This document shows positions 31,201 through 37,200 of a stretch of 46,161 nucleotides of DNA, piece after piece (within the stretch, counting starts at the first letter, position 1; every line of letters starts with the position of its first letter). The DNA is taken from assembly GCF_054482595.1 (NCBI RefSeq), contig NZ_JBTHVH010000006.1; one strand, written 5' to 3'. Position numbers: made by a program. The DNA is from a plasmid.

Positions 31201-34200
31201 GTCGCCCCCTGCGATAGCCAATCTCCAGAGCAATTTTATCCAGTTCCTCACGAGAAGCTGAGGGCAGGTAGAGTGTATTACGTTGGGGCTTGCGTCTCGT
31301 TGCGGTTTTTTTTCGGGTAGCAGTCATTTTTCTTCCGTTTCATTTTGTGGGTTAAGCTTCTCTCTGTGATGTAGTGGATGAAAGCCATACTTCTTTGCTG
31401 CGGATTATCCATGAGTAGAATTTCAGCAAAATCGTGTGGAATTGATTTCCTTAAAAGATTTGCCTGAGCTGTTGTATGTGATTGTCTGTACAAAAGCTCC
31501 GCCATCACATCTTCTGGTACAGGTAAAGGCTCACCGCCAAATGAGATAAAGCGTTGTACGTAAGGGATAGCAGTTATTGTAGTGGAATGAACCTCTTCAA
31601 AATCTGCCTGGATAAAAAGATAACCGGGAAAAAGCGGCAAACGTCTTTCTCGATATGAAATTATCTTATCCGGGCGACGATACCTTTCAGTCTCCATAGG
31701 ACAGAAGTAAGAGAAGTTCAGGCGTTCGAGATGAGCAAAAACTGCTGCAAATCTCGTAGTGGTGAATTGCAAAACATACCATTCCATAGTTTTTCCTTTC
31801 AGGCGCTCTCTCGACTCGGATGACCCCGAATCAGAGAAAAAAAACAAAAGGACAAATTTACATCTCATAAAAACTTTATCAGCTACATGTGCTGCGTTCA
31901 ACCACACAAGCAGATCTTTAGATCGCATTTACGACACATTTCATTTTGTTTGTGCTTGTATTTTATTTATATCTAGATACATATGCTATTTGATAACAAA
32001 AAAGCAGATCGATTGATCACCATGCGCTTATTTTATAGTCAAGTTAACTAAATTTTTTACCGCTAGTTACTTTTTACAAAAACTCTGCTAACAAGATAAA
32101 TAAATCGATCTTAATCAATAAGTTACCGGAGAGTATGAATTATCCTAAACGAATTCCGATTTTCACTTTCTGTTCGCTTTGAATCATCGACTGTTTTATT
32201 TGCGAGAAATTTCTCATCTGGAGTTGCTGTTTCTTAATCATCTCCGCGCTGTTCAGCACCAGCTCTTTACTGGATGAAGAGATTCTGTCTATGCCCTTAA
32301 CCCCCAGGTTCTCTAGCTGCCACTCATTCCTGTGTGCAGTCTTCCAGCCATGCTGTACACCGTTCTTATCAAGTGCAGGGATTTTCACCTCCTTTTGTCC
32401 TAACTTCTTCAGCTTAACAAGATCACCTTTCTTAACGTTCTCGCGAGTGGTTAACTCACCAAAATCAGCCCCCCAATATGTTTTCTCCACGCCCTTGTTC
32501 AGTGTCTTAAGCTTTATGAAATGCTGCTTTGGTTTGGTTTTATCGTTCTGATAATGGTCGTAGCCAACATCAACAACCTCATAAACGCCCTTCTGTCGTT
32601 TTGGCGCTGTTTTGTGCGCATCTTTAATAGACTGGTTAAGTCCATGCTGCTGCTTATGAGTGGCTTTAACGTCATAGCCCTTCATCTTCAGCTCTTCACA
32701 AAAACCTGTACGAATTTCCCGTAAATCTTTTTTCCTGATATCAGCTCGTTTACCGTCATTATCACGAATACGAAAAACGACATGCACGTGTGGATGTTCT
32801 TTTTTGTCGTTATGATAGCCAAGCACAAAACGATGATTTGGGTACTTCTTGTTCATCGTTTTCCTGACAGACTCAAGCAGATCTTCAGGTTTTACCTTTG
32901 CTGATACAGGCGGTGAAAACACAATATTTTGGGTTACTTTTTTATTTTCCTTACCTTTATCATCGAAAACATTTTGAGGGTCATTAGCACGATCTATCAT
33001 GTGCTCTTTAGCCTCCTGAATCTCATCACCTTTCCATACCTGACCGCTTTCACTCATCACTGGCAGCTCTGACTCCCGGCTCATATAGTCAATACTGTTT
33101 CGAACTCCCTGCCGGGTAATCGCACCTCCTGAGATTTTGACAACAACCTCCTTACTGGCACCCTTGCGGTTGATACGTTCCTGAACGTTGCGTTGATAGT
33201 TTTTACCACCATTTTTAACTTTATGGGCGAAAGCAGACTTGCGGCCAGCTTCAGAGGACTTACGCTTAACCCTGAATTCCTTGTCAACATAAACGCCCAT
33301 GATTACACCTCAACCTTGTTAGAAACAGTTCGCCCTTTGCATAACATAATGTAGTTTTCAAACTCACTTTTGAGACTCATTATCTCTGAACTCAACCGCT
33401 CAGCGTCCTGATAGAACCCATCTTTATCAAGTACTCTGGCATTATCATTAACGATAATATAATGAAAGTTTCGCCCTATTTTATCTATTGCATTACGGCA
33501 ACGATTCATCACCAGAAGTTCCTGATCGAAAAAATCAAGTTCATTTTCAAGTGTCGTCTGGATTCGATAACGACATTCTCTGGATAAATTCCAGCCATGA
33601 CGATGAGCCGCTTTCTCTATTAAAGTTCTTTGTTTCCCTGTCAAATACATTGTGGTTTTGATAAAATCATCATTGTCTTTTGACACATTAACATCTTCAT
33701 TTTTAACCTTGCTTTTCAGTAAAGCATTGGCAAGCAGCTTCATTCCTTTTGCCACGGTTAAACCCGGTTCATCTGGATAAAGTGTTTTAAGACAATCAAG
33801 TAGATCATCATGTTGGCTTTCTTCAATCCTGAATTGAACTTTTTTCATAAAACTCTCCAACAAGAACCGACTGTAGGTCACCGGGCAAACGTTGCGGAAT
33901 GGCGTCAGAGACGTCATTTTGCGGCGTTTGCCCTATCCTGCATCGCAGTGAACTACCTCCACACATAAATTGTGCTTCAGCGTCCATCGAAATGCAAAAA
34001 ATGAAAGGCTATCGTGGCTGTGATCTGGTGCGTCTGCGACCGGAGACAACGGATTCGCGGCTAACTTGGGCGGAAATAAATTCGCTACGCGAATGGCCTG
34101 GCAGGGGGCGCGAGCGCTGTTTTACGGAATATACAAAAAAAGCACCTCCCGTAAACGGGAGGGCTTCGGCGATTCAGGAACGGGAATTTTATTCTGCCTC

Positions 34201-37200
34201 TGGTGTGTCGCCTTCCATGCCCTGCCGGGCATCATGGAGCCAGCGGCGGAGGTTACTCATTCTTTCCCGGTTTGCCCGGCTGGGACTTTTTCCCCTGTTA
34301 CCGCTTAGTATACTCCAGACTCTTAACCCGGCCTCGTTAGTCCAGTGCAATACAATTTCCCCTTTGCTGTTAAATCCCAGCGAAAACCGGACAGCTCCCC
34401 GCCTCTGTTCTGCACTGATAAAATCTAAAAACTCCTGTTTTTTCATAGCACCTCCTGTTTTTCTATCAGTGCTTTTGTTTCTTTCTTTTCCAGGGCTTTT
34501 CTGAGTAATGCCATGTACTCAGGAAAAGCAGAGAATGGCATCAAGGGAAAAACCGGACGCCCACCCTTTTCAACAGTCTGTATTGCTGATAACATGCGTT
34601 CCGACATTTTATATTCCTCGCGAGGGAATTGAGTGTCACGGTATCAGGTTGCCTCCACAACCTGATACCACCCCTAATTGATTAACTCCGCAGTTCTCTT
34701 ATCGCTTCATTTTTGGCTTCCTCCAGTTCTTTAAGGGTATATGCGAAATTCTTCCAGTTAATTACTTCGTTTATAACCTCAGATTTACTTAAACCACACT
34801 CATTAAACCAAAAGTTAATATTTTTCTTGAGGGAATTTTTCGCCGTCAGTTCCTCGGACAACAATTCACTAACAGACGTGATAACATAACCACGACCGCG
34901 ATTTTTATCTTCGAAAGAATGAACGGCAAGGAAGAGAGTTTCTGAATGGACAAAAGCAGAGCAGGTGATTTTTTCTTTCTTAGTGTTTAAAGCCTGGAAA
35001 GTGATAACATACGTGTTCATTTTAGTCTCCCGCCCGTTTGGGCTACTGGATCATGGTAAGGAACTATTCCCGACCTACAAATAAATTATACCATCATATG
35101 ATGGTAATGCAATTTATTTAGTCACTTTATCCTGATTTTTTTCTCTCTTAACGAGCTGGTAATCTGGATGTTCATCAGCCAGGAGCAAAAGTAATTCATA
35201 CGTACCAGCGGCTAAACCACGAGACGTTTTACCGGATGTTTCTTTGGCTTGCCAGGCTGATAACGTAAAACCAAACCGTTCAGCGGCTTCCTGCTGCGTA
35301 AAGCCAGCTTTAATACGTGCTTGTTTCACCTCTTCAGGTGTTGGCTTAAAACTCATGATTTTGTACCTTCACAATAGTATCTGTATAGAATTTCAATAAA
35401 ATTGGATCATCAATTTCATCTTTAACGTTCGAGAATTCTTCGTAATAAAATGATTTTTGGAAAACAATCTTTTTAGTTGTTTTTTTATCCGCTTCTTTAG
35501 AGCGTACCTTCATCAGTTTTTCAAGTTCAATAAACAAACGTGTTGCATCTTCAGACACAACAATCCTGTATGTTACATTACCTTTGTTTTTCCTGTCGCT
35601 CAGGACTTCATTCATTTTTTGCCTCATAGCTGTTTAATAAACCCCGCTACCTTTATGAGCTGATCTACACTCAGGCCACGAATTACCATTTCATATCCGT
35701 CGCCCCGTTCTGATACGTTACCATCTAACCCATTCTCAACTTTAAACCCGGTCAATGTCCCATGCCAGCTTTCAAGATGCACTAAACGAGATAGCATTCC
35801 TTTCAGGATCAGTTTTTTCTCGCGTTTTTGCTGTAACTGTTGTTCATACTCTCGCGCCATATCTACATTATCTAAAGCATCCGACAGGATTTTCTTTTCA
35901 ATATCGGCGGCGATTTCTACAGGGTTACGCTCTGGCGATACTGTGCAAGTATGGTAAGGACTTCTCCAGCTGCGACTATCTACGCTTCCAATGATAACTA
36001 ACCTTCCTTTCTCCATTCGAATATGTATAGAGTAATTTTTAAAATCAGGTGAGGTTAGCTTAATCCTGTACTGGCAATCATCGAGCAGATTTACACGCCA
36101 GCCGTTCCCCAGGATTCGACAAACGATTTCAAACACCGGTTTATACCGTTCAAAGAAATTTTTCTGTTCTTTCATCGATTCAGCCTTTTGAACTCAATAA
36201 AAAAGCCGTAAATCGAATTACGGCAGTTTTAAGACTATTCATCAAAGTGTCCATCATCACTTGCAGCTTCCTGGGCTTCGCATTCCTGCTGATATGCTTC
36301 TTCCTTCGCAAAAAGATGCGCCCATCCTTCTGCGTTTAAGCCACGGTGCAAGACTGAACCATTTTCATTGCATTCTTTGGCTGTAACTTCGATCTCATCC
36401 GGGCAAATGTAGGCTCCGTAACTTTCAAAAATGTTTATCAGCTCCGCTTCCGTTATGGTCTTGTTTTTCATCAACGTGTCTCCGAATCAATCTTTGCCAT
36501 GTTCTAGGGGGCTTTCGCCCCCATTCCGGTTATGCGCTTGCTTCTACACGTGTCCAGCCTGACGCCTTACGTTTACCCGCTGTACCATACATTTCACGAA
36601 TTTCTTCAATGCTGTGTTCTTTACGGTTCCAGCGGCTTTTGTGTTCTTCAGGACGGTAAAACCATTGTTTTTTCTTAGATGCCCACTTACAGCCCATTTC
36701 CTTTAAAATGTCTTTGTGTTCTTTAGTTTCTCCGCTAATCCAGACCCAATTACCAATAACTTCATAGACAATCCCTGTAAGGCCGGAAAGCGTATTCAGA
36801 ACTTTTTCCAGATCTTCACCGTAGTTGTAACGTGCGTTTTCATCAGTGCTTTGAAACTGATTGATTTTATCAATGTTAGCCATGAGAAAATCAAACGCAG
36901 CATTTACTGCTTTCATCAGCTCGGCACCCAATGGATTGCGGTCTGGATGATATTTTAAAGCCGCTTTTTTGTATGCCGCCTTGATGTCCTTTTCAGTCAG
37001 ATCACCGGATAAACCAAAAACGTTTAATGCTTCCTGAATATTCATTTTTCGCTCCCGCCCGTGTGGGCTTCTGGAATCTGGCAGGGAACCATTCCCAACC
37101 AACAAATTCATTATACCATCAAATGATGGTTATGGAATCATTTTTAATGCTTTACATTGTAAAGATTACATAAAGATGTATATTGCTTTACCGCGCATGA

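Follow-up and report, generated by a model that had tools for sequence, protein, structure and literature searches.

The locus and its genes

The window, i.e., the whole stretch of DNA analysed here, comprises 46,161 nucleotides (nt) of plasmid DNA (NCBI RefSeq assembly GCF_054482595.1, contig NZ_JBTHVH010000006.1). This report deals with two small, overlapping open reading frames (ORFs) in it, ORF-A and ORF-B, which lie next to an origin of transfer (oriT). Many IncX3 blaNDM-5 plasmids of 46,161 bp match the window region at 100% identity, and their records are typed IncX3, MOBP and MPF_T. The locus is part of the conserved backbone, with relaxosome genes on one side and the replication region on the other. 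[quoted passage not shown] The principal gene of the pair is already known and characterised on this plasmid type. ORF-A is a conserved companion gene.

An earlier note, made from the sequence of the window, had reported a 54-amino-acid (aa) ORF whose stop overlaps the start of an 85-aa ORF in an ATGA. Both are found exactly as described, on the minus strand, and both are annotated in RefSeq. The features of the pair are as follows.

34443-34607, minus strand: ORF-A, ATG start, 54 aa
34189-34446, minus strand: ORF-B (virBR), ATG start, 258 bp, 85 aa, isoelectric point about 10.3
34443-34446, minus strand: ATGA stop/start overlap, close to the virBR Shine-Dalgarno sequence (SD)
34640-34669, minus strand: perfect 12-bp inverted repeat (hairpin), GGTATCAGGTTG-N5/6-CAACCTGATACC
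34136-34162, minus strand: intrinsic terminator, stem CCTCCCG-TTTA-CGGGAGG, then TGCTTTTTTT, which ends the ORF-A-virBR transcript before oriT

ORF-A is preceded by the SD GAGGA, 8 nt ahead of its start. The SD of ORF-B, AGGAGG (34452-34457), is positioned 5 nt ahead of the start and within the last codons of ORF-A. The terminator hairpin (34162-34145) with its T-run follows 27 nt past ORF-B. RefSeq start calls for ORF-A differ between records, 54 aa in one and 50 aa in another.

Nine diverged lineages served for comparison of the locus, namely two IncX1 variants, IncX3, IncX5, and a number of IncX-like plasmids without a type, from Rahnella, Enterobacter, Serratia and others. Among diverged IncX lineages, the ratio of non-synonymous to synonymous substitution rates (dN/dS) of ORF-B is 0.05-0.10 in its own frame and 1.1-2.8 in the other two frames of the same DNA. 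For residues 1-43 of ORF-A, dN/dS is 0.10-0.13. The corresponding ratio of proportions (pN/pS) for ORF-A residues 1-42 has a median of 0.27, with pS near saturation, and the shifted frames give 1.0 and 1.6. Across five lineages with a synonymous divergence >0.5, 22 residues of ORF-A are invariant, M1-S2-E3-R4 and 18 more. Little or no variation is seen in the N-terminus MSER(M/I)LSAI, in the loop VFPxMxFxxFP, or in the SD with its fixed spacing. Judged by these comparisons of sequence, both ORFs are real genes and not chance ORFs, because purifying selection acts in the annotated frames and not in the shifted ones.

ORF-B is virBR

The gene virBR was described by Ma et al. (Nat Commun 2024, PMC11214620) as a 258-bp gene upstream of taxA, actX and virB1, with the ribosome-binding site (RBS) AGGAGG. 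It encodes an 85-aa protein folded as helix-strand-strand-strand-helix, with the essential residues R20, R42 and R67 and 60-77.6% identity to homologues from IncX1, IncX2 and IncX5. ORF-B matches in length, in the AGGAGG RBS and in its position upstream of taxA. The window protein has arginine at all three essential positions, and its identities of 77.6% to the IncX5 and 74.1% to the IncX1 homologue are inside the published range. Its AlphaFold2 model (helix 3-15, strands 19-25, 31-36 and 42-46, helix 57-76) has the fold as published, with a predicted local distance difference test score (pLDDT) of 87.6 and a predicted template modelling score (pTM) of 0.72.

Identity with virBR of p3R-4 (CP049352) was shown by mapping the published primers on the window. 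The virBR primers for cloning, for protein expression and for R42 and R67 mutagenesis map exactly within 34189-34464: the reverse cloning primer to 34189-34208, the expression primer to the ATG, and the mutagenesis primers inside ORF-B. The protein, WP_004199355.1, is also the product of RS00260 of pHNYX644 (L018:41953-42210). Further, the target of VirBR in PactX, the promoter region of actX, is present in the window.

32038-32057, minus strand: VirBR binding site in PactX, AAAAATTTAGTTAACTTGAC
33303-33848, minus strand: DDP1/TaxA, relaxosome gene
32140-33300, minus strand: MobP1/TaxC relaxase, relaxosome gene

The site matches the published consensus VAAAHTTTVGHTAASTHVHC, which has this single exact match in the 46-kb window (0.04 expected by chance). 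It is positioned at -251 to -270 from the ATG of actX (31787), within the mapped region of -279 to -159. Thus ORF-B is virBR, since primers, description, identity values and the single PactX site all agree.

Family searches did not disclose this. Scans of both proteins against Pfam, NCBIfam, PHROG and PADLOC had no match, and a search of ORF-B against 5.8 billion proteins returned only 'hypothetical protein'. A profile search of PDB sequences gave chance-level matches (best E 0.013, ribosomal protein S15). With the VirBR model, Foldseek against the PDB (best E 0.046, SRP14) and a structure search of BFVD (best E 0.012) stayed below significance. The α-β3-α topology which the modelled VirBR shares with SRP9/14 and with double-stranded RNA-binding domains (dsRBD) is a resemblance only. 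A literature search by protein accession found no match either. Profile and structure searches, which the earlier note had advised, thus uncovered no significant family or fold; the identity came from the literature and the primer mapping. As far as Pfam and NCBIfam go, the statement that neither product belongs to a recognised family is correct, yet a name for the 85-aa protein has existed in the literature since 2024.

The function of VirBR was demonstrated by experiment for the same plasmid type (PMC11214620; PMC11915502). It binds PactX in electrophoretic mobility shift assays and raises transcription of actX and of the downstream virB/virD4 operon; deletion of virBR costs 50- to 1000-fold in conjugation and also impairs colonisation of the gut (PMC11214620). 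Gao et al. (NAR 2025, PMC11915502) demonstrated that VirBR acts by displacing the plasmid H-NS homologue HppX3 from PactX, that virBR itself is under HppX3 repression, and that the same circuit operates in IncX1 and in R6K (IncX2). In R6K, chromatin immunoprecipitation of RNA polymerase shows a peak upstream of virBR. According to both papers virBR is apparently silent or inactive in laboratory culture, and the activating signal was left open (PMC11214620; PMC11915502). Among the roles which the earlier note considered typical of such gene pairs, the regulatory one alone is right, and it holds for just the 85-aa gene, an activator of the T4SS.

ORF-A and its overlap with virBR

The relatives of ORF-A form 71 clusters, all unnamed and all from Enterobacterales contigs of IncX type. 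In PLSDB, ORF-A occurs in 1530 records and ORF-B in 1529, essentially the same ones. The predicted structure of this mildly basic protein consists of a helix (3-13), a loop rich in Pro and Phe, and a second helix (25-52), with pLDDT 80-85. Residues 1-43 constitute a conserved core; sequence and frame of the tail vary. ORF-A is not described in PMC11214620, PMC11915502 or PMC11880322. In the systematic IncX3 knock-out set its locus tag, RS00265, was skipped, and for RS00260 a partial ORF deletion was chosen because of the overlap (PMC11880322).

ORF-A adjoins virBR in all nine IncX-type lineages examined. The overlap does not share this constancy. The ATGA is present in four of them (the window, L019, L020 and L021), in which ORF-A has 54-55 aa; in the other five (L002, L003, L005, L006 and L022) a 49-aa ORF-A ends 12-15 nt before ORF-B. 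The two IncX1 variants differ from each other in nothing but this. Past approximately residue 43 the ORF-A tail shifts frame freely, and what is conserved in that stretch is the RBS of ORF-B. Since overlap and gap both occur among the lineages and the tail shifts its frame, the ATGA is best seen as incidental, one of the states of an ORF-A tail that is prone to frameshifts and covers the virBR RBS. The tight coupling emphasised in the earlier note therefore holds for the adjacency, which is universal within IncX; the overlap itself is variable and derives from frameshifts in a weakly constrained tail.

A conserved hairpin ahead of ORF-A

Upstream of ORF-A all nine lineages possess a perfect hairpin, with a constant spacing of 30-32 nt to the ORF-A start and a variable loop. 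In three of them a paired T>C / A>G change, i.e., a compensatory one, keeps the stem perfect. The flanks upstream of the hairpin are unrelated among lineages. The hairpin is unique in the plasmid, and no other element is robust when the region is folded as RNA or as single-stranded DNA (ssDNA). It lies within 34608-34807, the fragment that served as native promoter in the VirBR studies; a sigma-70 consensus scan of the minus strand of this fragment found none. The hairpin may be an operator, a structure of the 5'-untranslated region, or an intercistronic structure.

Directly upstream of ORF-A is a 112-aa gene (34682-35020, minus strand) which is kept in IncX3, IncX5 and other IncX-like lineages (113-115 aa) and for which no family match was found. 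In IncX1 this position is taken by a 109-aa gene whose sequence differs, and L010 has a 60-aa ORF which resembles the C-terminal part. In the TraM-type contig L013 an equally sized gene sits upstream of the VirBR-like gene.

Further upstream, a 93-aa ORF (35346-35627, minus strand) shares an 11-nt overlap with an 80-aa protein (35114-35356, minus strand), which has a weak match in Pfam to helix-turn-helix (HTH) proteins of the MqsA/Xre type (E 0.001) and a match in PHROG to a transcriptional repressor (E 2e-5). The layout of this pair (35114-35627), toxin first and antitoxin second, may deserve a check as a toxin-antitoxin (TA) or regulator pair. The 80-aa HTH protein is a candidate binder of the hairpin at 34640-34669.

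A 201-aa ORF on the plus strand (33899-34504), antisense to virBR and ORF-A, was considered and rejected as spurious; it is interrupted or unconserved in other IncX groups. The stretch has locally 52-56% GC versus approximately 40% in the flanks. An Rfam scan found nothing relevant in the region.

A proposed role of the pair

The following account, taken as a whole, is very probably correct: ORF-A and virBR constitute an oriT-proximal operon, VirBR is the counter-silencer of PactX, and ORF-A and the hairpin may take part in virBR control. The two ORFs are the oriT-proximal end of a block of IncX3 backbone genes transcribed toward oriT. VirBR, small, basic and predicted to be of α-β-β-β-α fold, binds the 20-bp site approximately 260 bp upstream of actX. 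There it displaces HppX3 and turns on actX and, via the RfaH/NusG-like ActX, the entire virB/virD4 T4SS operon; conjugation rises. ORF-A would be a separately translated small protein with its own SD, kept beside virBR across IncX1/2/3/5-like plasmids, which is situated behind the conserved hairpin and ends from 4 nt inside to 15 nt before the virBR start. What ORF-A and the hairpin contribute can be suggested tentatively only: a part in the control of virBR expression or activity, with ORF-A as a co-expressed modulator or partner and not as an antitoxin. The alternatives are an independent role early after entry into the recipient and the absence of a protein function.

Several observations weigh against this account. 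The complementing clone pUC19-virBR, according to its primers, fuses 34807-34608 directly to 34464-34189, so that ORF-A codons 1-47 are gone. Because this clone restores conjugation (PMC11214620), VirBR needs no ORF-A in cis; the resident plasmid may still supply ORF-A in trans. An AlphaFold model of ORF-A, linker and VirBR in one chain (pTM 0.46, approximately that of two undocked domains) yielded no confident complex. VirBR-like genes outside IncX are all without ORF-A. With respect to virBR itself, Yang et al. (PMC11880322) deleted part of RS00260 in pHNYX644 and reported an effect of <12-fold, which conflicts with the 50- to 1000-fold of Ma et al. As a minor mismatch, PMC11214620 speaks of 26 basic residues tested, whereas ORF-B has 15 Lys and Arg.

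It is improbable that ORF-A has no protein function at all, i.e., that it is a leader ORF which sets virBR expression through translation, DNA or RNA, or else an annotation artefact. In the VirBR work the stretch was taken to be dispensable and left out of the clone, its tail shifts frame freely, RefSeq start calls disagree (54 versus 50 aa), and virBR has a strong SD of its own. All this would suit a mere leader. Yet the ORF-A core is under purifying selection (pN/pS 0.27 versus ≥1.0, i.e., at least 1.0, in the other frames; dN/dS 0.10-0.13), M1-S2-E3-R4 and 18 further residues are invariant at a synonymous divergence >0.5, and its SD is conserved at fixed spacing. These are properties of a protein-coding gene.

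An operon in which VirBR acts as counter-silencer is thus kept as the preferred reading. blaNDM-5 travels mainly on IncX3 plasmids, whose transfer rate has few known levers, VirBR among them. Flagging the locus as unknown would be wrong, with the main gene named and characterised since 2024. Of further use are the conserved ORF-A and the strictly conserved hairpin between the assumed virBR promoter and virBR; ORF-A was ignored or deleted in published constructs. Together with the position of the pair relative to the nick, discussed below, ORF-A and the hairpin are candidates to explain the laboratory silence of virBR and the divergent deletion phenotypes.

Two origins of transfer and the probable order of entry

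The oriT-like repeat to which the earlier note assigned the pair is indeed adjacent: a 110-nt inverted repeat, with arms 98% complementary and each with a MOBP nick consensus.

33843-33952: oriT copy 1, nick consensus on the plus strand at 33934-33941, CCCTATCCTG followed by C, nick between 33940 and 33941
39947-40056: oriT copy 2, nick consensus on the minus strand
13261-13716: hppX3, encoding the H-NS-like silencer HppX3

In MOBP relaxases transfer runs 5'-to-3' from the nick. Given the plus-strand nick between 33940 and 33941 and this direction, virBR and ORF-A are probably the first genes into the recipient, starting approximately 250 nt from the nick; we infer this polarity. The transferred strand is the template strand of both genes, which are on the minus strand with the nick consensus on the plus strand. 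The gene hppX3 enters approximately 26 kb after the pair.

The two oriT copies flank a 6-kb segment in which genes read outwards to the nearer oriT: those on the minus strand run from 37111 to 34189, and the plus strand carries pir-bis-ddp3. Seen from each of its two ends, the segment is accordingly 'leading'. For R6K, two functional oriTs are described (Avila et al. 1996).

The order of entry permits a further proposal, which we consider rather unlikely as it stands: the ORF-A-virBR operon may be an entry-triggered switch, expressed in the transconjugant before HppX3 arrives and accumulates. If so, a burst of ActX and T4SS expression would ensue (transitory derepression, epidemic spread) before HppX3 shuts PactX and virBR, and ORF-A with the invariant hairpin would set the timing or the dose of VirBR. 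Plasmid entry would then be the activating signal left open in both VirBR papers. VirBR-like genes near oriT in TraM-type and NikA-type plasmids would make such an entry switch a general device.

A different matter is whether the pair acts mainly in the recipient, in establishment or anti-defence as a leading region, with T4SS activation as a secondary property. The probability of this is low. It would agree with the entry as first DNA, deduced from the nick consensus and 5'-to-3' transfer, with a transferred strand that is the template as for leading-region genes generally, and with ORF-B relatives at or near the oriT-proximal end of a same-strand block in TraM-type and NikA-type plasmids. 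VirBR, however, has an established DNA target and a donor-side phenotype (PMC11214620; PMC11915502). The ssDNA folds show a 12-bp stem only and no long hairpin like that of the ssDNA promoter Frpo, a negative that was judged from folding and did not use a Frpo model. Neither is there a likeness to known anti-defence proteins, with the structural matches to Acb4 and AcrF2 far below significance. The donor-side counter-silencer remains the preferred function of VirBR.

Relatives of VirBR outside IncX

In a full HMMER scan, 1.8 billion representatives yielded no more than 23 clusters. Distant members have approximately 73 aa and 26-42% identity; those outside IncX keep R67, W69 and L70 and do not keep R42. 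In the wider family R67 is ≥90% conserved, i.e., at least 90%, and R20 is mostly conserved, whereas R42 is conserved within IncX only. The genes are situated in IncX-like plasmids (L007, L010), in plasmids with TraM and a NusG-like gene (L013, L014 and pmk2, i.e., L004), and in plasmids with NikA and a relaxase (L015-17). Outside IncX the VirBR-like genes are situated at, or close to, the oriT-proximal end of their gene block, upstream of traM or nikA.

L013:1391-3763: VirBR-like locus
L014:1247-4573: VirBR-like locus
L004:5001-8586: VirBR-like locus
L015:2578-7826: VirBR-like locus

In most loci no other gene stands between the VirBR-like gene and the oriT side, towards which it points. Exceptions are L007, which has one more small called ORF after the VirBR-like gene, and L015-17, which have three opposite-strand genes before nikA. 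ORF-A is absent from the VirBR-like loci L004, L007, L010/L011, L013, L014 and L015-17. In L013 a NusG/ActX-like gene is located downstream of the VirBR-like gene. This suggests that the VirBR-ActX module is not restricted to IncX.

Truncated VirBR variants exist in nature (P0037, P0036, P0031). P0037 (145 aa) consists of the first 30 residues joined to a transposase domain of IS26 type (PF13610). Loss of virBR has thus occurred in some field plasmids.

That the pair is a type II TA system, with ORF-A as antitoxin and ORF-B as toxin, is highly improbable, although the layout (small gene first, stop/start overlap, fitting sizes) is canonical and the α-β3-α topology superficially recalls the dsRBD-like toxin HicA. 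No toxin or antitoxin family was matched in Pfam, NCBIfam, PADLOC or PDB sequences, no toxin folds were among the structure matches of the VirBR model, and hhalign against the HicA toxin gave a probability of 0.5%. Co-occurrence is not obligate, with ORF-B relatives in seven other loci without ORF-A and virBR alone in the laboratory clones. The natural variant P0037 is truncated by IS26. Over-expression of VirBR alone from pUC19 and pET28a increased conjugation, and neither growth arrest nor toxicity was reported (PMC11214620; PMC11915502). Addiction, considered in the earlier note, is thus contradicted by the lack of a family match, by separable partners and by the lack of reported toxicity. 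Exclusion, put forward there as well, can practically be dismissed as entry or surface exclusion: both proteins are small and close to transfer genes, but neither has a transmembrane segment (maximal Kyte-Doolittle means over 19 residues of 0.78 and 0.58) or a cysteine for a lipobox, and an EexN-family lipoprotein is annotated elsewhere, within the T4SS operon.

Comparison with known systems

ORF-B does not differ from VirBR as published (PMC11214620; PMC11915502) in primers, length, RBS, arginines, fold, position or PactX site. The VirBR papers give no account of ORF-A or the hairpin, nor do they describe how the overlap varies, where the pair lies with respect to the nick, or which relatives occur outside IncX. 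Type II TA operons share with the pair a small upstream gene which overlaps a larger downstream gene; they differ in that the partners here match no such family, come apart both in natural loci and in laboratory clones, and have no reported toxicity.

Leading-region genes such as ssb, psiB, ardA and the anti-defence islands (Samuel et al., Nature 2024, PMC11541004) are on the same first-entering side and in the same template orientation. Unlike these, the pair has no homology to those families, and the known function of VirBR is T4SS expression in the donor.

A functional parallel within the IncX plasmids is PixR of IncX4/IncX7 (PMC8725589). Like VirBR it is a small plasmid-encoded activator of a T4SS promoter, that of the pilX operon, and is silent under non-mating conditions. 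Unlike VirBR it is an unrelated 97-aa protein with a LuxR-C-type HTH (PF08281), and it has no upstream partner ORF. Its gene lies downstream of taxC, in the place taken by actX in other IncX groups (PMC8725589). In its mode of action VirBR resembles the H-NS counter-silencers VirB of Shigella, Ler and LuxR, which likewise displace a silencer of the H-NS family from an AT-rich promoter.

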